64,000 nt of DNA from a virus (Duplodnaviria > Caudoviricetes). The stretch's first letter is position 1. Each line of letters begins with the position of its first letter. Made by a program: the position numbers and the translations under genes. Where the stretch lies: IMG/VR virus record IMGVR_UViG_3300037851_000284, positions 1-64,000 of that record. One strand, written 5' to 3'. Below, one piece after another: positions 4,169 to 62,988 of the stretch. Below the pieces are notes generated by a model. It worked only from the letters and a program-made list of their open reading frames with translations, searched no databases and had not been told where the DNA came from.

Positions 4169-4417
4169 ATGAAACTTGTTAACAATTATTCCATTTACAT
4201 ATCAGTTACTACCCTTCTTTTACTCATTGTTGCCTATTTTACGTATTCCTTATGGATGATAAGTGAAATAGGAAATGCTCAATTCGAAGTATTAAAGCAA
4301 ATGATACAAGAAGATGATTATGCAACTGATAACATAAGCAAGATGTTAATAGATGGAAAAATATCAAACAAAGAATACATTAATCTGCGACATAAATATT
4401 CACATGGGAGGATGTGA
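4169..4417 (+). CDS. hypothetical membrane protein
   Basis: RBS ggagg, N-terminal hydrophobic helix. Confidence 0.55.
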   Translation: MKLVNNYSIYISVTTLLLLIVAYFTYSLWMISEIGNAQFEVLKQMIQEDDYATDNISKMLIDGKISNKEYINLRHKYSHGRM

Positions 4418-4827
4418 TGGATACAAAGGATATGTTGTTATCAATGTGGAAAACACGGCATACACATCCTGAAATATTCATCAAGAAAGAAGTTCCATTA
4501 TTCTCATCGACGGGACAGTTCATAAAGAACTTCACAATTCTGAGTAAGTCTAGAAGAGTGACTGTGTATCCTGATGAGAATACTGTTATAAGTGGAACAG
4601 ACAGAGTTGGTATTTTGATATATGCTGACCAAAATCCACTTGGATACAGCGAAGATGCCCACCTTGTAGAACAAGGAAAAAAAAGGCCAGATGAGATAGG
4701 ATGGTTGTTTATCAAGATGATAAATATAAACCTGAAAATCTGGTTGGGCAAAGTGTCCAGTGGCATTCCGACAATCCTACAGGATTGTGAATATAACAAA
4801 GAGAAATCTCATCTTCTTTTGAAATGA
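4414..4827 (+). CDS. hypothetical protein
   Basis: coupled ORF. Confidence 0.55.
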   Translation: MMDTKDMLLSMWKTRHTHPEIFIKKEVPLFSSTGQFIKNFTILSKSRRVTVYPDENTVISGTDRVGILIYADQNPLGYSEDAHLVEQGKKRPDEIGWLFIKMININLKIWLGKVSSGIPTILQDCEYNKEKSHLLLK

Positions 4828-4833
4828 GGATGT

Positions 4834-5109
4834 ATGTATCATTTCTTAATGAATGACATCAACACAACACTAGAAGTAGTAGATGAGTGTCCCTTATTTG
4901 ATTTGTATAAGGGAGAGTGTTCAAAATGCAGATTGTTCAAGGGAACAACAGACATATATAGAGAAGGAAAATGTAATGCCCTAGAGCTATATCGTCCGAT
5001 CTCCGATTTTATGGAACCAAGAAAATGTCCCAAAAAATACGGAGTCTGCATAAAATGTCCGAGTTTTCTCGGATTCAAGGACGATAGAGGATTCTATTGC
5101 AACGCATAA
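4834..5109 (+). CDS. Cys-rich hypothetical protein
   Basis: several CxxC pairs; RBS gagga. Confidence 0.55.
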   Translation: MYHFLMNDINTTLEVVDECPLFDLYKGECSKCRLFKGTTDIYREGKCNALELYRPISDFMEPRKCPKKYGVCIKCPSFLGFKDDRGFYCNA

Positions 5110-5190
5110 CTTTCTCTCTTTTATTTTAAATCTGCTCGCAAACCCTATTTCAAGAGAGGAGAATAATTTAACTAAACGAAAGGAGTTTGT

Positions 5191-5571
5191 ATGATCAGAT
5201 TCTCTGAGTTCGCAAGAAATCTCAGTACCTTCCGTACTAAGGAAGTAAAAGATCCGCACTTTCGTTTCCATAGGAACGGAAATGGCTTAATGCAGTGTAC
5301 CTTCAGGGCCAATCTCCTTTTAAGAACAAAAAAGGGGATACAGCCACTCGGAAACGGATTGATATGTTTTGCTGATGAATCAGCATCATCTCAATCCGTT
5401 GAAGGAGAACTAATCCGATCAGGAAGATGGAAGTCATTTCAAGTCGGAAAATTATGGGCATTCTTGAACGGAAAAACTATCCTTCTTGCAAAAGTAGATC
5501 CTACAGGAGCTACCAATTTGGCAAGTGGATTCATATCTGAAGAAGGAGAATTCCTTATAGATAAGGAGTAG
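5191..5571 (+). CDS. hypothetical protein
   Basis: RBS aggag. Confidence 0.6.
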   Translation: MIRFSEFARNLSTFRTKEVKDPHFRFHRNGNGLMQCTFRANLLLRTKKGIQPLGNGLICFADESASSQSVEGELIRSGRWKSFQVGKLWAFLNGKTILLAKVDPTGATNLASGFISEEGEFLIDKE

Positions 5572-6322: not shown

Positions 6323-6345
6323 TATTTACCCCCAAGGAGATTATA

Positions 6346-8822: not shown

Positions 8823-8849
8823 CATATCCTTCTCACTTAACCAAAGGGA

Positions 8850-12574: not shown

Positions 12575-12778
12575 ATGTATTCGATAAAGCGAAAGAAGTC
12601 CCTTAATTATCCGAAATCAGGATCAGGATCAAGATCATGGTCATGGTCAAAGTCATGTTCATGGTCATGGTCATGGTCAGGATCATGGCCAAGGTCAAGG
12701 TCATGGTCAGGACCAGGATTATGGTCGCAGTCAAGGTCAGGATCAGGATCATGGTCAAGATCAAGGTCAGAGTCGTAA
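12575..12778 (+). CDS. Ser-Arg/Ser-Trp/Ser-Gly dipeptide-repeat peptide, copy 1
   Basis: RBS ggagg; TCA-NNN hexamer repeats. Confidence 0.6.
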   Translation: MYSIKRKKSLNYPKSGSGSRSWSWSKSCSWSWSWSGSWPRSRSWSGPGLWSQSRSGSGSWSRSRSES

Positions 12779-12800: not shown

Positions 12801-12929
12801 ATGTATTCAATAAAACAAAAAAAGCTCTTTATACATCAAAAGTCAAGATCAGGGTCAAGGTCATGGTCAGGACCAGGATTATGGTCATCTAGGATCAAAG
12901 TTGATGTTAAGACTAAGTCAGTGCTTTAG
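12801..12929 (+). CDS. Ser-repeat peptide, diverged copy 2 (MYSIKQKK...)
   Basis: same RBS/N-terminus as 12575; not in ORF track. Confidence 0.5.
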   Translation: MYSIKQKKLFIHQKSRSGSRSWSGPGLWSSRIKVDVKTKSVL

Positions 12930-13315: not shown

Positions 13316-13495
13316 ATGTATTCGATAAAGCGAAAGAAGTCCCTTAATTATCCGAAATCAGGATCGAAATCAGGATCAGGATCAAGATCATGGTCATGGT
13401 CAAAGTCATGTTCATGGTCATGGTCATGGTCAGGATCATGGCCAAGGTCAAGGTCATGGTCAGGATCAAGATCAGAGCCAAAGGCTGCTGAATAG
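13316..13495 (+). CDS. Ser-repeat peptide, copy 3
   Basis: near-exact duplicate of 12566-12710 including RBS. Confidence 0.55.
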   Translation: MYSIKRKKSLNYPKSGSKSGSGSRSWSWSKSCSWSWSWSGSWPRSRSWSGSRSEPKAAE

Positions 13496-15838: not shown

Positions 15839-16180
15839 ATGTACAAATTGGGAGACAAATTCATACTTACAGAAAGTTCCCACCCAGAGTATAACGGTAA
15901 AATATTTATGCTTACCGTTATACTTCGTGGTGGTATTGGAATGGCATCATTAGTATGTTTAAAAGATGGAATGAGTTTTCGTATAAAGCAGATTACCAGC
16001 ACCGACCTCCGAAAGGATTCACTCTCAGGCATATATTTTTCTAAACAAATATGGAGCTCACTAATCAGCGACGCAAAGTTTGAACCCATTGAAGTCTATT
16101 TGAATGACTTTCCACTAAAGTATAAGGATGCTTCCAAAACAGTGGTAGCAGAACCACGTTCTATTAACCTAAGATCATAA
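15839..16180 (+). CDS. hypothetical protein, paralog A
   Basis: shares MYK.G.KF.L..SS.PEYNGK.FM with 16196. Confidence 0.65.
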   Translation: MYKLGDKFILTESSHPEYNGKIFMLTVILRGGIGMASLVCLKDGMSFRIKQITSTDLRKDSLSGIYFSKQIWSSLISDAKFEPIEVYLNDFPLKYKDASKTVVAEPRSINLRS

Positions 16181-16195: not shown

Positions 16196-16522
16196 ATGTA
16201 TAAAACAGGAACAAAGTTTGTACTTAGAGATAGTTCTTTACCTGAGTACAACGGTAAAGTATTCATGTATATAGTAGTCAGCGTGGCCGGATTGGGATTC
16301 GATGGAATAGCACTTATGGTATGTTTAGAAGATGGTAAGTATCTTCCTACAGTGCTTATAAAAATTGATGATATAGACAACGGTATAATTTCAAAAGAAA
16401 AATGGAAAAAAGTAACTGGAGGTAGACATCTAGACAAAGTAAATTTTGATACGAGTTTTCCTCAGTACTCAATTGATAATACTATAACTACAATACCAAG
16501 ATCTATTAAACTAAGGTTATAA
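16196..16522 (+). CDS. hypothetical protein, paralog B
   Basis: tandem paralog of 15839. Confidence 0.65.
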   Translation: MYKTGTKFVLRDSSLPEYNGKVFMYIVVSVAGLGFDGIALMVCLEDGKYLPTVLIKIDDIDNGIISKEKWKKVTGGRHLDKVNFDTSFPQYSIDNTITTIPRSIKLRL

Positions 16523-18259: not shown

Positions 18260-18602
18260 ATTTACGGTGTTGGTCAATTGGGAACACATGTAGAACTGAC
18301 AATTCTTTGTGTTTGTATGGAGAAACATTGTTATTGTCTTACATCGTTTTTAAGTGGAAACAGATGGAAATCACTAACACTACTAACCAAGCACAGATGA
18401 CCGATTATGTATTGCTTTCTGATCGAACAATGGAAACAATACATATACCAATCATTTAGGGAATTAGTGAGCAACTTGTGGGGATTTGTGTATAAACCTG
18501 CAGGAATGACTAAAATTGAAAATGAATGTAAAAAGACGAATATTATAAAACCAAAAGAACAGGAAGTAGACCAACCAAGAACAACTAATCTAAGGAGAAA
18601 TA

Positions 18603-20036: not shown

Positions 20037-20217
20037 CGAGTTCCTGAGGGAACAAATCCATCAGATGGAAATACACAAGTGGATTGAAAGCGAGAAAGCC
20101 GGAAAAGACTTATCAGACATAGCACTATTAGACTGGATTAATAGGTTTGCTGCCCAATTTCGAAGAGAGTGGGAAAAGAAACATGGAATCTGTAATTACA
20201 GTGGTGAGGGGAGATAG
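19969..20217 (+). CDS. hypothetical protein
   Basis: HKWIESEKAGKD...A..DW motif recurrent in phage proteins. Confidence 0.6.
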   Translation: MHVTQLIRSKGKIQLSRTEKRNNEFLREQIHQMEIHKWIESEKAGKDLSDIALLDWINRFAAQFRREWEKKHGICNYSGEGR

Positions 20218-20836
20218 GTTAACCTCATCAAAATGCAAGTTTTGTAATAAAGAAGCTTTATATCAATTGCTACTTACTAAGAAAGCAACAAGCGATGGAA
20301 TTAGAGTATACTGGTTTGGAATTTGCGAGGAACATAAAGACAAAATAAATACTATAATAAGTGGACAATATGATATAGATTTATTATTCTCTGATAAACC
20401 TGAGAAAGAGAGAAGGAGAAGTATAAACCTGAGATCAATGCCAAAATTTAAGTCTCCTTCCTTATTTCAGCATGTAAAAGCACGAAAACAATGTAAATTT
20501 GTTGGATGTACAAATACGTTTGTTGGAGTAGCTAATCAAGATTATTGTAGAGATCCTAGATGTATAGAATTAAGAAACGAATTTAACAGGGCCAAGGAAA
20601 GAAAAAAGCTAAGAGATAACGATGCTATAAACTTAGTCTTATCGTCGAGATACAAGAAAAGACTACATAAAGGACAAGTATTAAAGTTAAGATGTAGAGC
20701 AAAATCGTCTATAGGTACGAGATGTAATAACTATCTTTATATAACGTTTGACCCAAAACAGTCAGTCTATCCGATGTTTTGTGAATGTCATCGGTCAGCA
20801 TATAAGAGATCTAGATTTTATTTACAGAAAGGTTAG
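20147..20836 (+). CDS. Cys-rich hypothetical protein
   Basis: multiple CxxC/CxxxC clusters. Confidence 0.65.
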   Translation: MLPNFEESGKRNMESVITVVRGDRLTSSKCKFCNKEALYQLLLTKKATSDGIRVYWFGICEEHKDKINTIISGQYDIDLLFSDKPEKERRRSINLRSMPKFKSPSLFQHVKARKQCKFVGCTNTFVGVANQDYCRDPRCIELRNEFNRAKERKKLRDNDAINLVLSSRYKKRLHKGQVLKLRCRAKSSIGTRCNNYLYITFDPKQSVYPMFCECHRSAYKRSRFYLQKG

Positions 20837-27509: not shown

Positions 27510-28220
27510 ATGAATCTAAGAAACAAGAAAATAGTGCATGTTGGAATAGCATTAGACCAATCCGGAAGCATGGATTTTACCAAGAAACAGACAATATCAG
27601 GATTAAATGAACAAATACAGGAACTAAAGAAACACAAAGATATAGATACTACAATAACTTGGGTGACCTTTTCAGGACCAAGTGACGTGGAAGTAGTATA
27701 TTCTGTGGTTCCTGTAAATAGTATCGTTGAAATTGACGACAAATCTTACAATCCTAATGGAACTACTGCCATGTTTGATGGAGTTGCTCGATTATTAAAC
27801 GAGATGAGTCAGAAAATAAACGATGATCTTGATACTACATATTTAATATTGGTTGTATCAGACGGAGAAGAAAACTCATCAGTAGAATATGACTCAAAGA
27901 AAATCGCAGAAATGATCAAAGAAAGAAAAGATTCCAAAAGATGGACTATAATTTATATTGGTGCTAATCAGGATCTTTCTCAAGTACAAGAAATTCTTGG
28001 AATTGATGCTAGTAATATGCTAGGATATACTAGTACTCCTTCTGGTACAGCAGCAGGATGGAATTGTCTAGCTAGTTCCACAACAAGGTATATGAGTTCT
28101 AGAAGCTCACTAAATAATAGTCAAGCGTCCTATACTGTATTAGCAGCAAACTTTGTTAATTCAGATTCTGAGACCATCGTATCTGCCGATGATAAAACTA
28201 AGGAACAAGATAAGAAATAA
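27510..28220 (+). CDS. von Willebrand factor A domain protein
   Basis: MIDAS DQSGS, TAMFD, SDGEENSS. Confidence 0.88.
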   Translation: MNLRNKKIVHVGIALDQSGSMDFTKKQTISGLNEQIQELKKHKDIDTTITWVTFSGPSDVEVVYSVVPVNSIVEIDDKSYNPNGTTAMFDGVARLLNEMSQKINDDLDTTYLILVVSDGEENSSVEYDSKKIAEMIKERKDSKRWTIIYIGANQDLSQVQEILGIDASNMLGYTSTPSGTAAGWNCLASSTTRYMSSRSSLNNSQASYTVLAANFVNSDSETIVSADDKTKEQDKK

Positions 28221-28992: not shown

Positions 28993-29183
28993 TATTACAG
29001 AACAGACATATGTTAAACCTTAGAGTACCAATCATATATCTAGAGAAGGCAAAATACGTTGAAATTATCTCTAACAAAACAGAAATGTCAAAATATAACG
29101 GCATGAAGGTAGAGATACTAAGAGTATTAGGTATAGATGGATGAAGAACCAAGGGTTTTAGTAAAGATAGACAATACACATCA

Positions 29184-35709: not shown

Positions 35710-36244
35710 TATGGAAAAAGAATTCATAGTAAAAGTAAAAGACTTTGATGAAAAGACAGACCCAACTAAGGTACATAACTGGAAAATTGGGGAAATAAAT
35801 TATACTGTCAATGTCGAAGAATATACATTTGATCCAAAGCCTAGAGCCTTGAATTTAAGAAGATCTTGTAATGAAGATTCAATAAACTCAGGGGATCCAG
35901 TAAGAGTACGCAATCTAGTAGAATCTCCAATAATGACAGTGGTGGAAATAAGACAGGAAAACGACGCAAAACGTCAGCGTATGGTGGAAGTTGTTGATGT
36001 AATTTGGTTTGATCAATTCCGTAATGTTAAAACAGCAGGTATAAGATTGGATCTGGTTGAGAAAGTAAATAAATCAGAGACATCTAAACCAAAATTTTCC
36101 GATGTAAGCATAGTAACTTCCGATCTCGTATTTAGAAGGCTGTGTTCTATAGGAGAAAAAGGTCTTGCTGTAAGGTACTTGAAGACTATGACTGGATTGG
36201 GAGTAAAAGAAGCACAGGATATTGTAGATAAAACTTCAACATAA
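35710..36244 (+). CDS. YodC/DUF2158-like domain plus ribosomal L7/L12 C-terminal-like motif
   Basis: GDPVRVR...PIMTV...WFD; VRYLKTMTGLGVKEAQDIVD. Confidence 0.55.
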
Positions 36245-36358: not shown

Positions 36359-36988
36359 ATGAAAAACCCATACTGGGGAGATAAAGATGACTCACAATCG
36401 AAAATAATTTCAACAAATAACTCATCAAGAGCAGAGATATACAAAGAGCTTGCGTTTGTTGAAACAGTATCTAATAGAATATATTTCTATTCAGAGATTG
36501 GAAGAAACGAGGTTCTTCAACTGAACAGAAGACTAAGGGAATTAAGTAACGAGCTCTTGGTAGCCGCAGCTGAACAAGAAAGACCACCAGCAAAGATATT
36601 TTTACATATTAACAGCTTTGGTGGGTCCATATTTGCAGGATTATCTAGTATGGACGAAATAGTCAGTTCACGAGCATCAATAACAACCATAGTAGATGGA
36701 TGTTGTGCTTCTTCGGCAACTTTCCTATCTGTAGTAGGAAAAGAAAGGATAATAAGACCAAATGCCTTTATGCTAATTCACCAACTACAGTCAGCATTTT
36801 GGGGAGGTAAATTCAGGGAATTACAGGATGAACATAAAAATAGTGAGAAACTAATGGAAACCATAAAAGACATATACAAGAAACATACAAAAATCCCACC
36901 GGAAAAGATAGATGAAATTCTTGATCACGATTTATGGTTTGATGCCAGAACTTGTGTAGATTATGGTCTAGTAGACAAAATTGCCTAA
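36359..36988 (+). CDS. clpP: ClpP-family protease subunit
   Basis: INSFGG, ASSA (Ser), MLIHQ (His), WFDA...GLVD. Confidence 0.88.
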   Translation: MKNPYWGDKDDSQSKIISTNNSSRAEIYKELAFVETVSNRIYFYSEIGRNEVLQLNRRLRELSNELLVAAAEQERPPAKIFLHINSFGGSIFAGLSSMDEIVSSRASITTIVDGCCASSATFLSVVGKERIIRPNAFMLIHQLQSAFWGGKFRELQDEHKNSEKLMETIKDIYKKHTKIPPEKIDEILDHDLWFDARTCVDYGLVDKIA

Positions 36989-38976: not shown

Positions 38977-39282
38977 ATGAAGAACCTCCGGAAGAGGAAG
39001 ATGATGATAACATGGGACAAACATCCTGATATAGTTACTAGGAAAAGAACATCTAAACTGGGTATTTGCAATAGATGCGACTCCTTCTCTTCCTTATTTA
39101 CTTCGGGTGATGGTTATTATCTCTGTAGAGAATGTTACAGAGATATAATTGGTAGCATATTTGATACAGAACTAAATGAAAAAATAAATAAGATGAGGAA
39201 AGAAAGAGAATTAAACGCAAGAGAGTTTGATTTTATTAACAGGAGAAAAAGGGGTCTCTGTCCATTAGTACTGAGATGGTAA
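38977..39282 (+). CDS. hypothetical Zn-finger-like protein
   Basis: CNRC...CREC. Confidence 0.5.
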   Translation: MKNLRKRKMMITWDKHPDIVTRKRTSKLGICNRCDSFSSLFTSGDGYYLCRECYRDIIGSIFDTELNEKINKMRKERELNAREFDFINRRKRGLCPLVLRW

Positions 39283-42188: not shown

Positions 42189-42608
42189 ATGACAAGTGTA
42201 CATTTAAGAGACAAAAACAATCTAATAACAATAGCAGTCGCCGGAAAAGTTCCAATAAGAGGAAGAACCTCCTCTAACCAATATTTTCATACCCCATTAG
42301 AATTATTACTGTGTTCCCTTGGTCTCTGTGTTGGAGGGATCATAAATAATTTTTGTCGCGTGTATGATATTAATCCCCTTATATTTGAGGATATTACCAT
42401 ATCTTTCGATGGATTTATATTTATTGTATCTCTAACTAGACCTTCTGATTTCAAGCTAGAGTTTGAAAGGTTGCTAGAGATTTACATAAAAGATTGTTCA
42501 ATAGCGAGAGAACTAAAAAAAGATTTATCCATAAAATGGGGCGTAAACAGCGCACCAGTGGAGAAATTGATAGCAAGAAAAGAAAAGCCTTGCTGTGGAG
42601 GAAACTAA
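42189..42608 (+). CDS. OsmC-like protein
   Basis: PLELLLCSLGLC...CSIAREL. Confidence 0.65.
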   Translation: MTSVHLRDKNNLITIAVAGKVPIRGRTSSNQYFHTPLELLLCSLGLCVGGIINNFCRVYDINPLIFEDITISFDGFIFIVSLTRPSDFKLEFERLLEIYIKDCSIARELKKDLSIKWGVNSAPVEKLIARKEKPCCGGN

Positions 42609-42928
42609 TGGCTTTGAATTTAAGAAGAGGACTATCGAAAGACGATCAAATACAACACGATAAAGAGATGAATCAAAAACCAGTAGTGGTAGATGAAGAG
42701 ATCAACCTTAACAACTGTGTTTTTTGTATTACAGGAACAATACAAGGAATGACCAGAGACCAAGCAGTAAAGAAAATATTGGAGAAGTTTCCAAGCGCAA
42801 GATTCTCACCATCTATGTCCTCAGATGTAGAATATCTTATTACTGGTACTGGATGTGGACAGACAAAATTACGGGTAGCAGCAAGAAGAGGAAGTACACT
42901 AATTGAAGCTAACTCAATCCTAAGGTAA
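42608..42928 (+). CDS. stand-alone BRCT domain protein
   Basis: FCITGT...TRDQA...YLITG...G.TKL..A...G as in LigA BRCT. Confidence 0.75.
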   Translation: MALNLRRGLSKDDQIQHDKEMNQKPVVVDEEINLNNCVFCITGTIQGMTRDQAVKKILEKFPSARFSPSMSSDVEYLITGTGCGQTKLRVAARRGSTLIEANSILR

Positions 42929-44711: not shown

Positions 44712-45170
44712 ATGAATCTGAGAAGCGATCAACTAACACCGATACAGGAATTAGTAAAACTGTTCCAGAGCAGGAAAGAAAACATAAAAAATAAGTATCA
44801 AATAGAGGAAGAGATAACTAATCAAAATACAAGAATGATACAGTTCTTTCAGTCAGTTTTAAAACCAATAGTAAAACGGACAGGAATCGGGTTTAATCTT
44901 TGTATAGAGGATTATTGTGTTATAGCAAGTATTATGGTTATTAGAAAAGGGAATAGTAGAGTTGAACCAGAATCATTCAGGGTATCAATAACCCTTCCAG
45001 AAATAGAAGATCTACTATCAAGCGCAAAGAATTTTACTTATTATACAAGAATGTTGTATATATGGCTAAGGTATTGTAAGACACTATTGAAATTGTCGCC
45101 AAAGTTTACAATACCACAAGAATCAACAGTTACAGTTACAATAAAAACAAAGACAAGGTACTTTGGATAA
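44712..45170 (+). CDS. hypothetical protein
   Basis: RBS aggag before MNLRS. Confidence 0.6.
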   Translation: MNLRSDQLTPIQELVKLFQSRKENIKNKYQIEEEITNQNTRMIQFFQSVLKPIVKRTGIGFNLCIEDYCVIASIMVIRKGNSRVEPESFRVSITLPEIEDLLSSAKNFTYYTRMLYIWLRYCKTLLKLSPKFTIPQESTVTVTIKTKTRYFG

Positions 45171-45574: not shown

Positions 45575-46139
45575 AGCTGGTAAAAGATGTTCTATCTACA
45601 TAAAAAAGATGATAGGTAGAGGATTTTGGAAACCAAACGACCGGCTCCCTCAAATATCTAGAATAGCCAAGGTTTTAGACGTATCGGTACCAACTATAAG
45701 AAAAGCTCTAAGCAGGTTCGAGAAAGAAGGAATAATACAGAACTGGGGACATCTAGGATATAGACTAAATTCCCCAAGATCAAACGAATTGAGAAAAAAG
45801 AGCAAATACTCCTTCTGGATTCGACAGTTACGGTTGAATCTAAGATCTTATGATGTATTGAGTAAGGGTGGATTTGAAATACAGAACTGGATAGTGAAGT
45901 TCTGCCAAAAAACCAATGTTATATTCGGATTAGATATAATATCCGGAAACAGAATTAGGTCCTCGTTGGAGGAGATATCTTCCATACTAGTTAACCCGAT
46001 CAGACTTGAGAAAGTGTTAGAAATAAAAGATAGCAATCAGTTTATTCAGAGTAAAAGGAGATTTGATAGACAGAGACTCCTTCTCCCTCTTGCTACCTTG
46101 GTTAACAGAAACAAAAAGTTATTGGGTATAGATGCATGA
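45546..46139 (+). CDS. GntR-like winged-HTH protein
   Basis: G.WKPNDRLP...A..L.VS..TIRKAL..L..EG. Confidence 0.7.
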   Translation: MKMKKEPTYRAGKRCSIYIKKMIGRGFWKPNDRLPQISRIAKVLDVSVPTIRKALSRFEKEGIIQNWGHLGYRLNSPRSNELRKKSKYSFWIRQLRLNLRSYDVLSKGGFEIQNWIVKFCQKTNVIFGLDIISGNRIRSSLEEISSILVNPIRLEKVLEIKDSNQFIQSKRRFDRQRLLLPLATLVNRNKKLLGIDA

Positions 46140-46492
46140 ATATAATATATACTGATTCGTGCCATCCATTAATGGTAGAAAAAGTAAGATTAGAGTTATC
46201 AATGGGACTTGTGTTGGGAATAAATAGAGAAGCATGGACACTGAATGATGCCATGTCAATAATAACTCATCCCAACGTAATAGTAGCTGTAATTAACTCT
46301 ATAAACGAGTTTACTGTATTGGAAATGGCAATGTTGCACTTTATGTGCAAACCAATAGTAGTTACATCCAAGTCTATAAACTCGTACCCTGTTTTAGCAA
46401 ACAGGATAGTAGACTTTATAGAACCAACGTGTAATCTACTCGAAGAGAACAATTCCTTCATAGAGTGGTTTAAAAGATGGCAAAGGGAATAA
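46136..46492 (+). CDS. hypothetical protein
   Basis: coupled ORF. Confidence 0.55.
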   Translation: MNIIYTDSCHPLMVEKVRLELSMGLVLGINREAWTLNDAMSIITHPNVIVAVINSINEFTVLEMAMLHFMCKPIVVTSKSINSYPVLANRIVDFIEPTCNLLEENNSFIEWFKRWQRE

Positions 46493-48543
46493 AGAAAATA
46501 TCGCCTAAAGTCATAGCTCTGTTAAGTCAATTATCAAAGAGCGGAGCTACCAATCTATATTCGGATAAAACAATAAAGCTCTTATCTCCATGTATATCCA
46601 AAGTGGAATCTTCCCACAAAGTAGATACGAAAAGATCAACCGCAGTAAACCGTCTGATCGACCAACTCCCAGACGGAATATACCCAAGTATGGGAGAGGT
46701 CGCATTATTAATCAAGAACTCCACAAAGGTAATTAATACAAAGTCTGTATCATACTCTCCAATGGTTATTCCGCATAAGGAGTTCCAGCCTTGCAAGGTC
46801 ATGAAACACATGCAAGGGAATATAATAACTGGACGAGATGTTGAAATACAGACAGTCTTACTAACATTATGTAAGAAAAGTAAGAGAGGGACAATATTAA
46901 TAGGTGATCCTGGAGTTGGAAAGACAGCCATAGTTCAGGCTATTAATTCGAAATTAATTGAACGGACAGTTCCTAGACAGCTAATAGGATGCCATATACT
47001 CAACATGGATGTTCCCTACATACTTTCAAAATATAAGGAAGATCCTGTAGGGGTTATAATTGGTATATTGGAAAAGGCGAGCGAATACGACAAGGCAATA
47101 TTATTCATAGATGAAGTTCATCAGCTATTAGGCCATCGGATGAACGATATACTAAAGCCATACCTGACTGAAAAAATAAGATTCATAGGCAGCACCACAA
47201 TAAACGAATATCACTCAATAATAACGGAAGATTCCGCTTTGGAGAGAAGATTTACCATTGTACACGTTAATGAACCAAATGTGGAACAAACAACGGAAAT
47301 GGTCAAGGGAACAAAGTCAGTATTTGAAGAACAACACAAGTGTATGATACCAAATGATATCTGTGATTATCTAGTAAAGACAGGAAGCAGATTTCTTGGA
47401 CATAGAAGGAATCCAGACAAGTCTCTAGATATACTTGATGTGGCCTGTTCAATAATGTATGAGAAAGAGATTCACAGTATATTCAATTCTTTTCATCCAA
47501 CTGGAGATTTCCTAAAGGATATAGAATTAAAGAGAAAACAGCTAGAATCCATGACTGACGTAGCAGGAAATAGAGTACTCGTTGAAGAATATATCAATCT
47601 TGCAATTTCGTCAGTAACTGGAGTAAGCTATACAGATATAGAGAACAGTACCAACTATGATGAAGTTGTATCTGGAATGAAAGGTATGGTATTTGGTCAG
47701 GATAAAGCTATGGAGTCCATCGCTAATGTTGTAAATATATTTAAACACGCAAAATGTGACAGGGAAAGACCAATATCGATTCTATTGACGGTGGGGCCAT
47801 CTGGATGTGGAAAAAAGACATCTGCTCAGCTGCTTGCTAAATATCTATTCGGAAATAAAAACTACTTCATAGATTATGATATGAGTAGTTTCAAAGATGC
47901 TTTTGCTCTAACCGAATTAAAAGGAGCTCCTCCAGGATATGTCGGATATGCAAAGTCTGGAGGTTTAATAAAAGCAGTAAGAACCAATCCTCTTTCTGTC
48001 CTCTATTTTCGAGGAATCAACAATTCTCACGAAGCTATCAGAAAGTATATAATAGATTGTTGCAGAAGTGGGAGAATGGTTGATTCTGCTGAAAGGGAAG
48101 CGAAGCTAAATAATACTATAGTAATATATTCCGTTACCCTATCTGATAAGGAATATGAAGAGCTACAGAAGGGAAAAGCAAGAAAAGGAATGGGGTTCAC
48201 GAAAAATGAGAATCAGCAGACAGAGAGTGAAGTATCAAAGACCTCTCTATCTTCTATTATTGGTGATGATTTAGTGAACTCGTGCGACGAGATAATTTTA
48301 TTTAATAAATTAGAGAAAGCAGACCTAGAGAGAATATATAATTCAAATCTAGACTACTATTTAGATATGTATGGTGTGGATATTGATAAAGATACATTGC
48401 AGAAAGAAGTTTTGTCCACAGCAAAGAATGGACATGATATAATTGCAAGGTTATCGTCAGAAGTACCAAAACAAGTATTCAAAATACTATCAGTTAAGGA
48501 GAAGAAAAATGAAAAAATCAATATTTCCAAAGAGAGTAATTAA
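46477..48543 (+). CDS. ClpA/ClpB-like AAA+ ATPase
   Basis: GRD.EI, GDPGVGKT, FIDEVH, ALERRF, PDKSLD, GQD.A, GAPPGYVGY. Confidence 0.88.
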   Translation: MAKGIKKISPKVIALLSQLSKSGATNLYSDKTIKLLSPCISKVESSHKVDTKRSTAVNRLIDQLPDGIYPSMGEVALLIKNSTKVINTKSVSYSPMVIPHKEFQPCKVMKHMQGNIITGRDVEIQTVLLTLCKKSKRGTILIGDPGVGKTAIVQAINSKLIERTVPRQLIGCHILNMDVPYILSKYKEDPVGVIIGILEKASEYDKAILFIDEVHQLLGHRMNDILKPYLTEKIRFIGSTTINEYHSIITEDSALERRFTIVHVNEPNVEQTTEMVKGTKSVFEEQHKCMIPNDICDYLVKTGSRFLGHRRNPDKSLDILDVACSIMYEKEIHSIFNSFHPTGDFLKDIELKRKQLESMTDVAGNRVLVEEYINLAISSVTGVSYTDIENSTNYDEVVSGMKGMVFGQDKAMESIANVVNIFKHAKCDRERPISILLTVGPSGCGKKTSAQLLAKYLFGNKNYFIDYDMSSFKDAFALTELKGAPPGYVGYAKSGGLIKAVRTNPLSVLYFRGINNSHEAIRKYIIDCCRSGRMVDSAEREAKLNNTIVIYSVTLSDKEYEELQKGKARKGMGFTKNENQQTESEVSKTSLSSIIGDDLVNSCDEIILFNKLEKADLERIYNSNLDYYLDMYGVDIDKDTLQKEVLSTAKNGHDIIARLSSEVPKQVFKILSVKEKKNEKINISKESN

Positions 48544-48766: not shown

Positions 48767-49156
48767 ATGAAAAAAATAGAAATAACCCACGCCGAAGTAG
48801 TGGCGTTCTATGGGACAAACACTGTGTTAGAAGAAGTAAAAGTAGAAAAGGGAACTATAGTTAATTTCAATATTAAGACAAGAATTAATGACAGAGTTTC
48901 TAACAGTCCTGTAATATATGATAAATGTTCTTATTTCGCGTCTTCCGAAGAGCAGCTTGGCAAGATCAAGAAAGTAATAACATTGGGAAATATAGTTGAT
49001 ATAAAAGGTACACACGACAGAACAAAAGGTAAAAAACTAGACAAAGACGGAAAAGTTAAATATTTTGATTCCATAAGAGTGAGAGAAATTGTTTCAATAC
49101 AAGACTCCCCAGCAAGATCCTCAAGCCCAGCTGTGGAAGACGAACTTCCCTTCTAA
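48767..49156 (+). CDS. second, divergent SSB-like OB-fold protein
   Basis: G.IV.IKG strand pattern; EDELPF tail. Confidence 0.65.
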   Translation: MKKIEITHAEVVAFYGTNTVLEEVKVEKGTIVNFNIKTRINDRVSNSPVIYDKCSYFASSEEQLGKIKKVITLGNIVDIKGTHDRTKGKKLDKDGKVKYFDSIRVREIVSIQDSPARSSSPAVEDELPF

Positions 49157-50344: not shown

Positions 50345-51186
50345 TACCAAAGATACCACTAGTGAAAATGCGGTTGCCAATTGTGGGGACAGAAGCGATA
50401 CTGAATGTAACGGGAGATTTCCATCTCGGAGCAAGTAACGTAGAGAAGTCAGAGATTGTTGATTCCCTTAATAGAGAATCAACAGAACACAAAGGAAACA
50501 TATTCAGGATATTTACTGGAGATCTGATGGAGAACCAGCTAAAGACATCTGTTGGTCATAACTATGACCCATCGATAGCAGATCCATCAGTACAAAAAAC
50601 AGAGGTAGTAGATATACTCAAGAGAACAAATGAAGAGTTGTATGCAAAGGAAAACTGGTCAAAGTTGTCAGTCAACCAGAACGCAAAGAATTTTGAGGGA
50701 GTAAGATCTGTAGGAGTTGAAGGTAATCACGAATACAGGACACGGAAGCTGGCTGGGCAATGGCTCATGAGAGAAGTATGTTCTCTTTCTAAAACTTTAT
50801 ACCTTGGGATTCACTCAATAATTGAGCTGACTATATACAACAAAAAGCTGAAAATGGAGAAAGTATACAGGATATATGTAGCTCATCGTCCTTCAAAGAC
50901 AGATGCTACATCAGTAGAAGCCATATTAAGAGCATTCAGAAGAAAGCAAAGTATGCTTCCTGGAGTGGATGTGATAGTATTTGGTCACTTCCACAGAAGG
51001 TTTATTTCTCCAGAAGGATATTTTGATGCTAGAACAAACGAATTTAGAAAGATTCTATTCGTGACTAATCCTTCTCCGCTGTGTAATCCTGAGTACAGTG
51101 ATGAAGCGGGTTATCCTCCAATAGAAACGGGATTTTCAGTTAATGTAAGTCTACCCCTCTATGGGCAACCATGGGGAGTCATTTAA
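50341..51186 (+). CDS. metallophosphoesterase
   Basis: GDFHLG, GDLMEN, GNHE, GHFH. Confidence 0.85.
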   Translation: MIPKIPLVKMRLPIVGTEAILNVTGDFHLGASNVEKSEIVDSLNRESTEHKGNIFRIFTGDLMENQLKTSVGHNYDPSIADPSVQKTEVVDILKRTNEELYAKENWSKLSVNQNAKNFEGVRSVGVEGNHEYRTRKLAGQWLMREVCSLSKTLYLGIHSIIELTIYNKKLKMEKVYRIYVAHRPSKTDATSVEAILRAFRRKQSMLPGVDVIVFGHFHRRFISPEGYFDARTNEFRKILFVTNPSPLCNPEYSDEAGYPPIETGFSVNVSLPLYGQPWGVI

Positions 51187-52982
51187 GAAAGAGAGAAACA
51201 ATGAACAAGACTACTGCTAAGGGAGAAAAGGCGGAGAAGGCGATTCAAGAGGCATTTGAGCCGATCTTCAATCGAATACTTTGCGACGCAGGGATTATCT
51301 TTGTAGATACTCCAGAGGAAACAAGATTAATAAGGGAAATATTGAGAAAGTTTCAAAAGGACTACGTACAGTTCTGGTCAATAGGGCAAGGACTCCATGA
51401 TGTCAACAAAAAGAACATTCATATAGACAGATTCTATCCGTACAAGTTCCCTTCTGCTCAAGCAAGGGTTGGTTCGGGGTCTAATTTTGACACTAGAGTA
51501 TCCCCTCTTAATGTATTTAGTATTATAGAAGAGGACTCCAGAACAAAAATAGTTCCTGAAGGAACGCCAAAGAAAAGGCACATATATGTCCTACGGGATC
51601 TTGATAAGTTTCTAAAAGACCCTGTGGTAATCAGAAGGCTGAAGGATTTGGTTTATCTTTGTGCGACATCGGCTTCAACCATAGTGGTGACGGGTTATGG
51701 AATATCGGTTCCAAACGACATAGAGAAGGATACCACCTATGTGCGACTTCCCTATCCTACAAAGGAAGAGATTCGTGACATAATACTAAAGGACGTAAGA
51801 GCTCAGATTAAAAAACATAATGCTACTCCGAAACCCAGGGAAGACAAGGTTGATGACACAATAGACGATTCATTCAACGATGATGATGTCGCTAGAGCTT
51901 GTCTTGGATTAACTGAAGACCAAATAATAAATGCTCTCCAGTATTCAATGACTACGTTGTATAGGGTGGATATTCCTCTCATTATAGAGGAAAAGAAATC
52001 CATCATAAATAAATCAGATATTCTAGAATATTGGGCTTGTAAGGACAATTTAAAGAATATTGGTGGATTCGGAGAGATAAAGAAATGGTTTAGTATACAG
52101 AAAACCGTAATAACAAATGCTGAAAACGCAGCAAAGTTCAATACAGAACCTCCCAAGGCAATTATGCTACTAGGAGTACAAGGTTCAGGTAAGACTCTCT
52201 GTGCGAAGGCTCTTGCTCAAGATTGGAATGTTGGATTGACAAAACTAGATTTCAGTAAGGTATTTGCTGGTCTAGTTGGTGAATCTGAAAAAAGAATGAG
52301 ACAGGCCCTAATGCAGGTTGATGCTGTTGGCGGTATTGTTGTTATAGACGAACTAGATAAAGGATTATCTGGAGCCGGAAGTTCAGACAAGACAGACGGA
52401 GGAACAACCAATAGAGTAATTGGTACCTTTCTAACGTGGTTGAACGAGGAGCATCCTGGGGTCTTTTTAATTGCTACTGCTAACGATATTTCCAATCTCA
52501 GAAGGAATCATCCTGAACTGTTAAGAAAAGGAAGATTCGATGAAATTTGGTTCTCCGATGTTCCGAATGTAGAGGAGAGAGAAGAAATATTCAAGATCCA
52601 CCTCGAAAAGAGAGGAAGAGATCCAGAGAAATTTGACATAAGGAAACTATCCGAGTATGAATTCACGGATTCCAGCGGACAGACCTATTCCGTAACAGGA
52701 GCGGAGATTGAATCTTCAATCAAGGACGCATTACGGAACAAGTTTGCGTCTAGAGGAGGAAAGGAAATTGAGATAGGATCAAAGGACGATATAAACACAG
52801 AAGATATTATGTCTATGCTTAAGAAAATAAAACCTATCACAATGATTGGGAAAGAAACCATATCATCAATGAGAAAATGGTCGGAGAACAACGCAAACAA
52901 CGTTTCCATCGGAACAACAAAGAAAGATAAGAAAGAAAAAGTACATAAACTTAACCTGAGAACAGACGACGTTAATATATAA
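51171..52982 (+). CDS. Ycf46-like AAA+ ATPase (start probably 51201)
   Basis: D...L.D..VIRRLK, EEKK..I, GVQGSGKT, IDELDK, PELLRKGRFDEI. Confidence 0.88.
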   Translation: MGSHLRKRETMNKTTAKGEKAEKAIQEAFEPIFNRILCDAGIIFVDTPEETRLIREILRKFQKDYVQFWSIGQGLHDVNKKNIHIDRFYPYKFPSAQARVGSGSNFDTRVSPLNVFSIIEEDSRTKIVPEGTPKKRHIYVLRDLDKFLKDPVVIRRLKDLVYLCATSASTIVVTGYGISVPNDIEKDTTYVRLPYPTKEEIRDIILKDVRAQIKKHNATPKPREDKVDDTIDDSFNDDDVARACLGLTEDQIINALQYSMTTLYRVDIPLIIEEKKSIINKSDILEYWACKDNLKNIGGFGEIKKWFSIQKTVITNAENAAKFNTEPPKAIMLLGVQGSGKTLCAKALAQDWNVGLTKLDFSKVFAGLVGESEKRMRQALMQVDAVGGIVVIDELDKGLSGAGSSDKTDGGTTNRVIGTFLTWLNEEHPGVFLIATANDISNLRRNHPELLRKGRFDEIWFSDVPNVEEREEIFKIHLEKRGRDPEKFDIRKLSEYEFTDSSGQTYSVTGAEIESSIKDALRNKFASRGGKEIEIGSKDDINTEDIMSMLKKIKPITMIGKETISSMRKWSENNANNVSIGTTKKDKKEKVHKLNLRTDDVNI

Positions 52983-54513: not shown

Positions 54514-54738
54514 TTGTATGAGACTGTAGTATTTATAAAAATTAAAGAGTGTAGATGTGGATGTGGTGTACTCATACACGATGGAATTCCAAAACTTACT
54601 ATTAGATGTAATACAAGGACTAAGGCATTTAGTCAGCACACAAGTCTAATACAGCAATATATAGCAATTGTAAAAGCTGAACACTTCGATAAGGAAGAAA
54701 TTACTATAAGTAGAATGATTAATCTTAGGAGAAGATAA
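54514..54738 (+). CDS. hypothetical protein
   Basis: CRCGCG; coupled to next ORF. Confidence 0.45.
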   Translation: MYETVVFIKIKECRCGCGVLIHDGIPKLTIRCNTRTKAFSQHTSLIQQYIAIVKAEHFDKEEITISRMINLRRR

Positions 54739-59638: not shown

Positions 59639-61303
59639 TTGAATCTGACAAAAGAACAGAAGATAATATTGGATAATTGTTATACCAATTTATATATTAG
59701 CGCTGCTCCAGGGTCGGGCAAGTCTAGTATGTTGTCAATTATAGCCAATAAGTTATTAAACGATCCTTTAAATAGTATTTTGTTAATTACTTTTACTAAT
59801 AAAGCTTCAAAAAATATCATATTAAAATGTTTTAGTTCCGATCAGACTCGTATAGTTGGTGGAACATTTCATGGTCTAGCTAATTTATTTGCTAAACAAA
59901 ACAATATCTTTTGGAATATCTGTGATGAAGGAAAGAAACGATTAATAATTAAAAAGATATTTAATTGCAAGAAAGATAAATTAAAACTGTATGAACTCAT
60001 AGATAAGATATCATCATCTAAATCGTTATGGCCTATAGAACTATCTGATGAGGTACAGAAGTATAATTCTGAACTGGAGAAATATAACTTATTAGATTTT
60101 GATGATATGATTTACAGGATAATTAGCTTGCTTCCCAAATTATCCCTACCAAAGATTACACATATTCTAGTAGATGAACTTCAAGACACTTCTGGACCAC
60201 AGCTAGAAATGTTAAAGGCCTTACAAGCTAATCTAAAATGTAATATTATCGGTGTAAGTGACGATGATCAATGTATTTATGAATGGCGCAATGCCCGCCC
60301 CGAAAATGTACAGGACTTTATTAAAGTATTCAATTGTAAAATCTTAAACATGGGTTATAATTTCAGGTCGGATAGAAGTATTGTCGTTGCTTCTAGTAAT
60401 TTAATAACCCATAACAAGAATCGTATAACGAAAATCATACGACCATATAAAACATCTGAGGGATACATACATGAATACCAATGTCAGTCACCATTATCAG
60501 AGATAAGTTATGTAATATCAAAGTGTAAGCAGAATTCAGGTAAGAGAATAGCTATATTATATAGGAACAGAACACTCAAAAACCACCTAGAATACGAACT
60601 AAAAAAGAACAATATAAAATATACAGTCAATGACGCTCTAGAGATATCTGATAGAAATGCTGTGAAAGTCATTATGAGTTCTTTAAAGGTAGCATCTTCG
60701 TCAGGGGATATCTACGACCTAGAGATAGCATCGAAGGCCTTAAAAGGCATTGGATGCGTTACAATAGAGTCCCTAAAGAAAGAGTTAAAAGATAGGACTC
60801 TAGGAGAATTATTAAGAGATAAGTTTCATGACCCAAAGAATGCTAAGAAGTTTAATTCGTTAATAAGTATTATATCATATTTTAACAATAACAAAGACAA
60901 GAACTTAGATAGTTTAGTAAGTTATATAGAAAGATTCTTCTGTTCCTCCTTTATTTATCAAGATGATATGAAATTGTTTATCCATGATATAACTAAGGAT
61001 TATAAGATAAATTGTTGTGATATAAGGGAGTTATGTAACGACTTGGGGCTAGATGGTAAGGAAGAGAATCAAGATAAAGATGCGTTAGTAGAGTTATCGA
61101 CGATACATGGTTGGAAAGGAATGCAAGCTGACGTAGTAATTATACCATGGTGTCATATGTTTCTAGAATATAAGCAGGGAAGAGTTATAGATACAGAAGC
61201 TGAGAGAAGACTATTTTATGTCGGCATAACTAGAGCAGAATCAAAACTTTATCTTAGTTATACTGGAAAAATCCCGTTATTTATAGGAGAAATGTCCCTA
61301 TGA
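59639..61303 (+). CDS. UvrD/Rep-family SF1A helicase
   Basis: AAPGSGKS, ITFTNKA, VDELQD, NFRS, STIH..KG, ERRLFYVGITRA. Confidence 0.92.
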   Translation: MNLTKEQKIILDNCYTNLYISAAPGSGKSSMLSIIANKLLNDPLNSILLITFTNKASKNIILKCFSSDQTRIVGGTFHGLANLFAKQNNIFWNICDEGKKRLIIKKIFNCKKDKLKLYELIDKISSSKSLWPIELSDEVQKYNSELEKYNLLDFDDMIYRIISLLPKLSLPKITHILVDELQDTSGPQLEMLKALQANLKCNIIGVSDDDQCIYEWRNARPENVQDFIKVFNCKILNMGYNFRSDRSIVVASSNLITHNKNRITKIIRPYKTSEGYIHEYQCQSPLSEISYVISKCKQNSGKRIAILYRNRTLKNHLEYELKKNNIKYTVNDALEISDRNAVKVIMSSLKVASSSGDIYDLEIASKALKGIGCVTIESLKKELKDRTLGELLRDKFHDPKNAKKFNSLISIISYFNNNKDKNLDSLVSYIERFFCSSFIYQDDMKLFIHDITKDYKINCCDIRELCNDLGLDGKEENQDKDALVELSTIHGWKGMQADVVIIPWCHMFLEYKQGRVIDTEAERRLFYVGITRAESKLYLSYTGKIPLFIGEMSL

Positions 61304-61596
61304 ATCTAAGAGACACCCAATATAATGATGAATTAAATTTAAGAGAACCATTCACTAATGGAAAAAGGGTAAATGTTGAAGTATTAAAGTCAAAGGGTAA
61401 AATAATTCAAAAGGTAGTTTTAGGAAAAGACGTTTGTTATCTAGTTAAACTAGATGATATCTTTATAATTGCAAAAAAAGATACTTTAGACAGATCTAGA
61501 TTTCCTATTACAGGGACCAAAATAATTTGTATAAACATTGCCTACTTAAAAGAAATAGAGGATAATGATGGCACTCAAAGTATTGGACCGCGTTAA
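61300..61596 (+). CDS. hypothetical protein
   Basis: RBS aggag. Confidence 0.55.
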   Translation: MNLRDTQYNDELNLREPFTNGKRVNVEVLKSKGKIIQKVVLGKDVCYLVKLDDIFIIAKKDTLDRSRFPITGTKIICINIAYLKEIEDNDGTQSIGPR

Positions 61597-61746
61597 GAAA
61601 TGGATTTATCAATCAACATCAGAATCAGACCAACAATTATTTCATGATGTCCCAATAGGACAAGTAATATACATACAAGGTAAAGTGTATGTAACAAAAT
61701 CAGAATTAAAAACCGATGAAAACAGAGACTACTACGAGGTAGAGAA

Positions 61747-62334
61747 ATGCTAGATCTATTTTCCCAAGGTAAAAGCACACAAGAACTTATAACGCTTCTA
61801 GAAAACGACGTAAAAGCATACAGAAAGAAACAAGGAGTAGAGTCAAGGTCCAAGACAAAGATATATTATGGTAACTTAGAATATATTAATAACAATATAC
61901 TCATAGTAACAAGTCCTCCCAAAGCAAGGATATTTGAAACAGCCAATGATAAAAATATATCAGACCTGTTACTATCACACGGTATAACCAACTTTTTTAT
62001 AACATATTTTCATTTTATAAGCAAAGAACAAATATCAAAGAAGGATATTAAAGACTTTGGATTCTATGTCAGAGGATTCGCAGATATAATATCTCCTAGA
62101 ATAATAGTGTGCCTCGGAGAAGATGCTCAGCTATCCTTCTTTAAAAAGAAGTTTCTGATAGAAGACTATCACGGAAAAGAAATAGGAGACTTTGAAGGAA
62201 TACCAATATACACAACCTATCCTATGGAATATTATACAGAACATTCAAAGTTTGAAGACGATTCCTATAAAGAATCGCTAAAAGATGAAGACTGGAACAT
62301 CATAAAAGAAAGATACAAAGGAGTAATATCTTGA
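61747..62334 (+). CDS. degenerate UDG-fold protein
   Basis: SPRIIVCLGEDA, HGK, IYTTYP; catalytic motifs absent. Confidence 0.65.
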   Translation: MLDLFSQGKSTQELITLLENDVKAYRKKQGVESRSKTKIYYGNLEYINNNILIVTSPPKARIFETANDKNISDLLLSHGITNFFITYFHFISKEQISKKDIKDFGFYVRGFADIISPRIIVCLGEDAQLSFFKKKFLIEDYHGKEIGDFEGIPIYTTYPMEYYTEHSKFEDDSYKESLKDEDWNIIKERYKGVIS

Positions 62335-62549
62335 TAATACTGGATTTTTTTTGTAAAAAATGTGGCAACCAAGAGAACGAAGTTCTAGTTAAAGATCATA
62401 GGGAAGAAGTAATATGTAAAATATGTCAAGAAAAAATGGAGAGAATATACAGTGGAACAGTATATAAAACCAGAAGAAAATCAGACACTCCATATCCGAC
62501 CAATCTACTGGGAAGAGGAAACGATAGAGCCAACTTCGGAATCATGTAG
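62331..62549 (+). CDS. FmdB-like zinc-ribbon protein
   Basis: DFFCKKCG...CKIC...MERIYS. Confidence 0.7.
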   Translation: MIILDFFCKKCGNQENEVLVKDHREEVICKICQEKMERIYSGTVYKTRRKSDTPYPTNLLGRGNDRANFGIM

Positions 62550-62988
62550 CAGAATATATTACTTCCTAGAATATATTCGACCTATAATATCTATTTATAC
62601 AATAATTATGTATGTTCGAAGTCCACTACGTTATAGAAGAAATATAAATCTTCGTTCACAATCTGATCCCATAAAACAAGGTTGGAGTATATATATAGCA
62701 AGAGGAAATGAGTATAGTTCGTTATTCCAAAGTTGGAAGAACATGGAAAATATAGAAAAAATGTCATGTAAAAGACTAGACCTTGTTGTTTCACTAGGAA
62801 CAATAGAAACATCAACAAAAGATCGTTGTCATCAAACATTATTTGGAAATCACCTGTCAATAAGGCAAACAACTAGCAGCACAAAAACATTAGTGACATT
62901 ATCGAACAACCGCTTCTTTAGTGGAGTTGGAAAGACTGTGTCTTTAAAACAGGATATACTCATCGATGAATTTAATATACCATTCTGA
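62452..62988 (+). CDS. hypothetical protein
   Basis: ORF track; start uncertain. Confidence 0.45.
   Translation: MEQYIKPEENQTLHIRPIYWEEETIEPTSESCSRIYYFLEYIRPIISIYTIIMYVRSPLRYRRNINLRSQSDPIKQGWSIYIARGNEYSSLFQSWKNMENIEKMSCKRLDLVVSLGTIETSTKDRCHQTLFGNHLSIRQTTSSTKTLVTLSNNRFFSGVGKTVSLKQDILIDEFNIPF

Follow-up and report, generated by a model that had tools for sequence, protein, structure and literature searches.

The first 64 kb of the phage genome IMGVR_UViG_3300037851_000284 raise the question of why one very short peptide, a hydrophobic residue followed by Asn-Leu-Arg (NLR), should recur in so many of its open reading frames (ORFs). This 64-kb stretch, here called the window, begins a 219,054 bp genome of 33 per cent G+C (G000 below) from a clade of uncultivated ∼200-kb phages, for which no cultured relatives were found in the phage collection. 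An earlier reading of the window from its letters alone (the sequence-only reading) had taken the peptide for a phage-wide linear signal constrained at the level of the protein. The comparisons described here indicate that it is a short peptide at protein termini, probably a common address tag, and the argument that follows concerns what might read it.

Two complete IMG/VR relatives, G001 (230 kb) and G002 (213 kb), have a gene order in common with G000, and key proteins are ∼60–65 per cent identical. Further, more distant members of the clade are represented by four fragments, namely a 229-kb ENA contig (27 per cent G+C), a 57-kb Logan contig, a 12-kb contig (40 per cent G+C) and a 147-kb IMG/VR contig; all four also bear tags, some of them on small orphan proteins. 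Much is known of short linear motifs in eukaryotes and the viruses that infect them and, to our knowledge, very little in phages.

Results

Enrichment of the NLR peptide

All of the [I/L/M]NLR sites of the sequence-only reading, and its variants TNLRR, KNLRK, IKLRL and LHLRR, were found in place, and its rough estimate of about one chance occurrence was borne out by shuffled proteins, which gave a mean of 0.95 (maximum 5 in 2,000 trials) against the 14 [I/L/M]NLR peptides in called ORFs. Translated in three frames, the + strand of the window holds 17 such peptides, 14 of them inside called ORFs, versus 5 on the minus strand, and the tripeptide NLR by itself is found 19 times in window ORFs where 4.5 are expected. 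Among 8,000 tripeptides it is the most enriched in one ORF set and the third in a second set, behind a Ser/Trp repeat contributed by three small paralogous ORFs. The corresponding DNA pattern AAYYTNAGR is present 23 times on the + strand (18 in codon phase 0, 2 in phase 1 and 3 non-coding) and 6 times on the other strand; set against the shuffled proteome and off-frame translations, the motif is enriched over the null and locked to the reading frame. Codon choice within it matches genome usage, the window sites using every Leu codon but TTG, with AGA dominant and about one-fifth of the Arg codons CGN. Inspection by eye showed no wider conservation of the DNA flanking the sites.

Other parts of that reading need correction. 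ORF 38196, which it had counted as a carrier, is 17 amino acids long and too short for a gene, as is ORF 37391 (19 amino acids). Nor is the motif phage-wide, its excess being confined to the left arm of the genome (0–80 kb): NLR occurs 4–7 times in each of the first four 20-kb bins, against ∼1.4 expected, and 0–3 times per bin, equal to expectation, over the remaining 140 kb. Genes run on the + strand until ∼116 kb, followed by a structural block on the minus strand; this structural half is without the motif, and in structural genes NLR is at background. The description of the carriers as unrelated holds in that the tagged proteins of G000 have no detectable mutual similarity, except for 15839 and 16196, which are paralogues.

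Terminal position and tag profile

With start codons refined beforehand by ribosome-binding site, the density of NLR per 10,000 positions in the first 10 residues, the last 14 residues and the interior of proteins was 25, 21 and 2.5 in G000, 33, 15 and 2.0 in G002, and 32, 8 and 2.3 in G001, respectively. The entire excess is terminal, and protein interiors (2.0–2.5) are at the chance rate. The four internal sites of the window (20147, 35710, 45546 and 62452) are either not conserved in orthologues or in ORFs without an orthologue. Ranked by frequency at N-termini, NLR comes first among tripeptides in G001 and G002 and second in G000, with 7, 9 and 10 N-terminal occurrences in the three genomes against ∼0.9 per genome when residues are permuted within the terminal window (maximum 6 in 2,000). 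The C-terminal excess is weaker, at 7, 5 and 3 observed against 1.0–1.7 by the same permutation.

The 41 terminal sites of the three genomes (26 N-terminal and 15 C-terminal) define a profile that extends beyond the three residues. Asn precedes Leu-Arg in 33 per cent of cases at N-termini and 18.5 per cent at C-termini, versus 6.4 per cent in interiors, and is itself preceded by Met, Leu, Ile or Val at 22 of the 26 N-terminal sites and by Ile, Leu, Val or Phe at 13 of the 15 C-terminal ones. C-terminal tags have Arg or Lys two to four residues upstream, and the residue following the tag Arg is variable and not conserved. N-terminal tags end 4–9 residues from Met1, with the single exception of a G001 site ending at residue 12. 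Some small proteins bear twin or triple tags; a G002 protein located downstream of the AAA ATPase gene, at a distance similar to that of the 98-residue twin-tagged protein of the window (Table 1), carries the twin KNLRTKLNLRE.

Conservation, modularity and controls

Where orthologues exist the terminal tags are kept, at a variable distance from Met1 and with synonymously different codons. A protein with a VWA domain starts MNLR in G000, G002 and G001 alike, and the BRCT protein starts MALNLRR in G000 and G001, GLNLRT in G002 and MGINLRR in locus L112 of the wider clade sample. A conserved 152-residue protein reads MNLRS in G000, MGLNLRN in G002, MGVQLRQ in G001, MNLRKD in L118 and MGNINVRL in L121. 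The Cas4-like nuclease begins MAINLRK, MTKINLRN and MSTLNIRK, and a 217-residue protein that may be a small terminase begins MNLRD, MTVNLRT and MSNAVNLRV, in G000, G002 and G001, respectively. At the other end of a protein, the AAA ATPase finishes in a Lys-rich, poorly conserved stretch that ends in the tag: KLNLRTDDVNI in G000, KVNLREANEEIEL in G002, KLKIRAS... in G001, KVNLRTDDIVI in L118 and KKINLKNLEVDFD in L121. An internal site of the same ATPase, at position 442, is not conserved in orthologues. Across five genomes the VWA tag is encoded as AAT CTA AGA, AAC TTA AGA, AAT TTA AGA, AAT CTT AGA and AAC CTA AGA. The protein-level constraint that had been suspected from the synonymous codons is supported by this drift under fixed residues and by the frame lock, and the tag is maintained by selection on the protein.

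Two families allow the tag to be followed as it comes and goes. Of the 61 database homologues compared with the VWA protein, the 30 nearest are at least 42 per cent identical to it, and 29 of these start MNLR or MNIR, with a Lys/Glu-rich linker of variable length between the tag and the first strand of the domain, and the more distant ones start differently. For the Cas4-like nuclease 31 homologues were compared; of the 21 nearest, 19 start M-x(1-3)-[ILV]NLR-[KNS], the 2 exceptions having a shorter N-terminus, and 9 of the 10 most distant begin directly at the conserved helix, untagged. The tag is a modular add-on, present or absent as a unit in both families. An AlphaFold2 (AF2) model of the VWA protein (predicted local distance difference test, pLDDT, 90.6) places residues 1–6 as a coil overhang before strand 1, with the tag outside the fold.

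Outside the clade the signal vanishes. Terminal NLR was at background in 78 IMG/VR loci of unrelated phages with an untagged VWA gene, and likewise in a second set of 78, which have cellular-type ClpB/C genes (1.7–1.8 per 10,000 positions). These ∼156 unrelated loci, and the nearly uniform lack of the tag in distant VWA and Cas4-like homologues, answer the question of whether other phages lack the motif: the tag is restricted to this phage clade. The proposal of a short linear signal common to unrelated proteins holds, supported by the frame lock with its synonymous codon drift, by the conservation of terminal tags in orthologues, by their modularity in two families and by their background frequency elsewhere. 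The sites in the window are collected in Table 1.

Table 1. Sites of the NLR peptide and Clp-related genes, by position in the window (SD, Shine-Dalgarno sequence).
Feature	Positions	Strand	Gene and remarks
N-terminal tag MNLR	27510..27521	+	VWA protein, gene 27510-28220; kept in G001 and G002
N-terminal tag MALNLRR	42608..42628	+	BRCT-domain protein (Pfam BRCT), gene 42608-42928
N-terminal tag MNLR	44712..44723	+	conserved 152-aa protein, gene 44712-45170
Twin tag MNLRD...ELNLRE at protein start	61300..61344	+	98-aa protein, gene 61300-61596
MLNLR at start of possible ORF	29010..29024	+	possible 44-aa ORF 29010-29144, directly after tRNA-Ile; gene status uncertain; no orthologue found
Variant N-terminal tag MKNLR	38977..38991	+	gene 38977-39282, 101 aa
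C-terminal tag LNLR, 6 residues ahead of stop	52950..52961	+	AAA ATPase, gene 51171-52982; codons not SD-like
C-terminal tag INLR, end ...PRSINLRS	16163..16174	+	gene 15839-16180; paralogue 16196-16522 ends PRSIKLRL
C-terminal tag INLR, 8 residues ahead of stop	4379..4390	+	gene 4169-4417; not an SD, because the Arg codon is CGA
C-terminal TNLR, codons overlapping SD of next gene	18584..18595	+	gene 18407-18610; AAT CTA AGG AGA 5 nt before ATG at 18603
C-terminal INLR (end INLRRR), codons overlapping SD of next gene	54718..54729	+	gene 54514-54738; AAT CTT AGG AGA AGA TAATG includes next start at 54738
Internal INLR in basic linker	20423..20434	+	gene 20147-20836; not conserved in G001/G002 orthologues
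Internal LNLR	35849..35860	+	ORF ∼35710-36244, starting after tRNA-Gly; no orthologue found
Internal LNLR between GntR helix-turn-helix and C-terminal part	45834..45845	+	gene 45546-46139, Pfam GntR; not conserved in orthologues
Internal INLR	62644..62655	+	gene 62452-62988; no orthologue found
ClpC-like double-AAA+ unfoldase, candidate reader	46477..48543	+	688 aa; Pfam; best PDB matches ClpC
ClpP peptidase	36359..36988	+	PF00574, 109 bits; specific to G000, absent from G001 and G002

Discussion

A Clp machine as candidate reader

A short terminal peptide on unrelated phage proteins is known in kind, for example from the capsid targeting sequence of T4 and from clamp-binding tails. The NLR motif itself, its use at both ends, its carriers and this clade are not described in the literature searched, and full-text searches found no description of an NLR-type terminal motif. 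The picture that we consider most probable is that the tag (hydrophobic-Asn-Leu-Arg, usually beside a Lys/Arg-rich linker) sits on a free, unstructured N- or C-terminus of ∼5 per cent of the proteins of the clade, almost all of them non-structural (the VWA and BRCT proteins, the Cas4-like nuclease, the AAA ATPase, the possible small terminase and many small orphans), and that one common trans-acting reader would recognize these otherwise dissimilar proteins. That reader may be the ClpC-like AAA+ unfoldase of the clade, working through its unique N-domain and its putative ClpP-docking loop together with a ClpP-like peptidase, in which case the tag would serve as a tether or degron that passes tagged proteins to the phage protease for timed removal or remodelling. 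We infer both the single reader and its Clp identity, and put the probability of this reading at roughly 35 per cent.

Several properties of the unfoldase make it an attractive candidate. In place of the canonical N-domain it has a clade-specific 110-residue N-domain, and in alignment with ClpC its MGF loop falls where the ClpP-docking loop is. The use of the tag by Clp is plausible because every clade member examined for it encodes the ClpC-like ATPase (G001, G002, L118, L121 and the 57-kb contig). Besides the ClpP peptidase specific to G000 there is a second ClpP-like gene at G000 114817-115401 (L117:12817-13401), at the end of the + block, which is conserved in G001 and G002, so that unfoldase and ClpP-family genes occur together in all three complete genomes.

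Precedents for such a role exist. Clp unfoldases recognize their substrates, and their N-domains recognize substrates and adaptors, through peptides exposed at the termini; the ClpX N-domain is bound by UmuD through an N-terminal peptide and by SspB through its LRVVK-type tail. Like the NLR tag, these tethers and degrons (the SspB tail, the UmuD peptide and the ssrA tag) are short exposed peptides at either end of unrelated proteins. Their sequences include Leu-Arg, and a single AAA+ machine reads them; this phage encodes both a ClpC-like unfoldase and ClpP-like peptidases. The exposed, unstructured character expected of a tether is seen in the VWA model and in the Lys-rich tail of the AAA ATPase. 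The differences are that the NLR sequence is another one, that the N-domain of the candidate phage ATPase has no detectable relative, and that here a phage-encoded system would act on the phage's own proteins.

A number of observations weigh against a Clp reader. No result ties the tag to the Clp ATPase, and their co-occurrence cannot discriminate among readers because all of the clade members found have both. The N-domain is neutral to basic and so not an obvious partner for a basic tag, and the VWA tail ahead of the first strand is just 6 residues, short for engagement by a pore. The motif has one polarity at both termini, which suits a docking groove more than a pore, and the conserved carriers, mostly DNA-handling proteins, fit a DNA-linked hub equally well. 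Six of the 15 C-terminal sites are at least partly due to the SD of the next gene, as discussed below. The conserved ClpP-like gene, which scores equally as an ATP-dependent protease and as a head-maturation protease in PHROGs, may instead be the latter. A complex prediction for the N-domain and the C-terminal tail of the AAA ATPase gave no answer and so bears on binding in neither direction; for the N-domain alone, AF2 gives a model of mean pLDDT 68, with no Foldseek PDB match below E = 1.

Two other candidates for a part in tag recognition were considered and rejected. A 118-residue ORF at 46136-46492 (+) overlaps the start of the ClpC-like gene, is translationally coupled to it and is conserved in relatives, but is not a ClpS-type adaptor; it has no Pfam or PHROG match, the Atlas groups it with nucleoside 2-deoxyribosyltransferases, and by embedding and predicted structure (TM ∼0.7) it looks like such an enzyme. 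A ubiquitin-like cassette just past the window includes NLR-tailed small ORFs (64591 and 67117), but these are variable inserts with no counterpart there in G001, and the true ubiquitin-like protein ends LIGG. The 755-residue protein of this cassette had no match in IMG/VR in a single-sequence search.

Possible docking to a hub for DNA transactions

Nearly as likely, and ranked just below a Clp reader, is the tentative alternative that the tag is a docking motif for some other hub tied to DNA transactions, whether a replication, repair or packaging factory protein, a host protein (the clamp or RNA polymerase, for instance), or DNA itself, by which unrelated enzymes would be recruited to one place as they are elsewhere by clamp-binding peptides and SSB tails. 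The conserved carriers speak for it: a BRCT protein, a Cas4-like nuclease, an AAA ATPase beside an Mre11-like phosphoesterase, the VWA protein, a possible small terminase and, in G002, the large terminase. The twin and triple tags of some small proteins would suit an oligomeric hub. Clamp-type docking peptides (the tails of T4 gp43, gp33 and gp55 for gp45, the bacterial QL[SD]LF and the PIP box) are likewise found at the extreme termini of DNA-transaction enzymes, typically flanked by basic residues, and behave as modules that can be gained or lost, and the terminal tags of the BRCT protein, the Cas4-like nuclease, the AAA ATPase and the possible small terminase follow that pattern.

The likeness does not extend to the motif or to the rest of the apparatus. 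Clamp-binding motifs are hydrophobic or aromatic, and NLR is not; its profile Φ-N-L-R with basic flanks matches neither QL[SD]LF, QxxΦxxFF nor the LDFLF type of T4, and it is also unlike the known SSB and RecA docking consensus. No phage clamp was detected with PF00712, PF02916 and PF00705; a host clamp may be involved. Many carriers are orphan proteins without known function. The SSB has the usual acidic DLPF tail, and the DNA polymerase (G000 68479-70917; L028:4479-6917) lacks the NLR tag and has a conserved C-terminal motif of its own, LDTIYIGEL. Its orthologues have the conserved extreme C-termini EELDTIYIGEL, EELDTVYMGDL and ALDIVPMEEL, which is probably a separate docking motif.

Capsid targeting as an unlikely alternative

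It might be expected from the precedent of T4 that a short terminal signal common to unrelated phage proteins marks them for loading into the prohead, possibly for injection, or for cleavage beside NLR by a phage protease such as a ClpP-like one. The capsid targeting sequence of T4 (N-terminal MKTYQEFIAE of the internal proteins, cut by the gp21 protease) is also short, terminal, placed on unrelated proteins and encoded outside the structural block; the conserved ClpP-like gene has, as noted, a head-maturation score; and many carriers belong to the small accessory proteins, which in some phages are injected. We nevertheless regard this as improbable. The T4 signal is strictly N-terminal, spans ∼10 residues and has the protease motif (L/I)xE at its end, whereas the NLR tag is of 4 residues, lies only 4–9 residues from Met1, is C-terminal at 15 of 41 sites and has no (L/I)xE or other shared cleavage context, the residue after Arg being free to vary. 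The tag is absent from head proteins, and neither capsid-like nor other structural proteins have a conserved NLR (a capsid-like protein carries S[N/D/A]LR, which is not conserved); the terminase subunit, the nuclease and the 603-residue ATPase would in addition be unlikely head cargo. The NLR tag has neither what defines the T4 signal nor what defines a clamp-binding motif.

Overlap with the Shine-Dalgarno sequence

Less probable still is that the tag as a whole is a nucleotide-level by-product, arising without protein selection from an SD that the end of the upstream gene translates as Leu-Arg-Arg, and from a preferred run of codons after starts; the sequence-only reading had left the SD out of account. 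The SD of the clade is TAAGGAG, one reading frame of which gives Leu-Arg-Arg/Ser, and Leu-Arg itself is 1.6–1.8 times commoner at protein ends. At 6 of the 15 C-terminal sites (18407, 54514, 64591 and 67117 in G000, and two in G002) the motif is xTA-AGG-AGx a few bases before the next start, such that the motif codons themselves are the SD 4–12 nt upstream; part of the C-terminal excess therefore appears to be a by-product of the SD of the next gene, and the analysis shows that an in-frame ribosome-binding site can mimic part of a peptide signal. The same is true neither of the other 9 C-terminal sites nor of any of the 26 N-terminal ones, which sit after a start codon and cannot be an SD. Every Leu codon and all but one of the six Arg codons occur in N-terminal tags, and TAAG-containing codon pairs make up 14 of 26 against ∼41 per cent expected, which is no bias. 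In conserved C-terminal tags, the AAA ATPase tail among them, Leu-Arg is encoded as CTG-AGA or CTT-CGT. Taken with the phase 0 position of the pattern, the specific preference for Asn and the retention of residues under changing codons, the codon evidence already refutes this explanation for the N-terminal class.

Chance, or common ancestry of the carriers, could be entertained since the motif was picked after reading the sequence and one carrier pair is paralogous, but it has a negligible probability and is already refuted by the rank of NLR (first to third) among tripeptides, the equal excess found independently in three genomes, the conservation in orthologues, the lack of relationship among the remaining carriers and the control loci.

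Implications

Should NLR be an address tag, sequence alone would delimit a functional class of ∼14 proteins per genome, most of them of unknown function, and as a peptide bait the tag offers a direct handle on the shared hub or protease. It is also modular enough for gain and loss to be tracked within single protein families. If the reader is the phage's own Clp machine, the result would be a self-contained viral timing of protein turnover and a compact, portable degron. The broadest form of the Clp proposal, which we hold as a doubtful but possible one, is that the clade runs its own tag-and-protease system, in which a tag gained or lost as a unit would mark ∼5 per cent of proteins for a ClpC-like unfoldase with a new kind of substrate-binding N-domain; were this true, the virus would decide, without the host, how long its early, repair and host-takeover proteins last.

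Other features of the window and its relatives

Genes related to DNA in the window include those for an SSB, an ATP-dependent ligase, the Mre11-like phosphoesterase adjoining the AAA ATPase, RecA and a UvrD-type helicase, and the remaining content includes 20 transfer RNA (tRNA) genes, a Ro60/TROVE protein, ClpP, the ClpC-like double-AAA+ ATPase and many small ORFs. The tRNA genes are spread among small ORFs at 14170-36343 (+). With their 5' parts the naive ORFs 28917 and 35516 overlap two of them, tRNA-Ile (28915-28992) and tRNA-Gly (35631-35706), respectively, and must for this reason begin further downstream. The possible MLNLRV ORF at 29010-29144 is in frame with the ATP-dependent ligase gene (29184-30362, +), with a stop codon and 39 nt between them; in one relative the ligase gene comes directly after the VWA gene.

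The three small paralogous ORFs mentioned above lie at 12575-12778, 12801-12929 and 13316-13495 (+) and start MYSIK(R/Q)KK, followed by Ser/Trp/Gly repeats (SWSWS...). Because of them SWS and WSW are the most over-represented tripeptides of the window, and they could be repeat artefacts or precursor-like peptides. In gene 20147-20836, an exact 12-nt direct repeat, ATAAACCTGAGA, is present at 20394-20405 and 20423-20434 (+), 29 nt apart, and only the second copy reads INLR in the coding frame.

The canonical SSB is encoded at 138-578. A 129-residue protein encoded downstream of the ClpC-like gene (48767-49156, +) has orthologues with an acidic ...D(D/E)LPF tail like that of bacterial SSB, and gene 62452-62988 ends ...EFNIPF. 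The Ro60/TROVE protein, with a vWA domain (40298-41776, +), had no orthologue found in G001 and is also present in G002 and the 229-kb relative. Beyond the window, an intein with an HNH/NUMOD3 endonuclease lies within a B12-binding radical-SAM gene of G000 (102526-104697; L117:526-2697), and the large terminase gene of G002 (L014:3838-6792, -) holds an intein with a LAGLIDADG domain.

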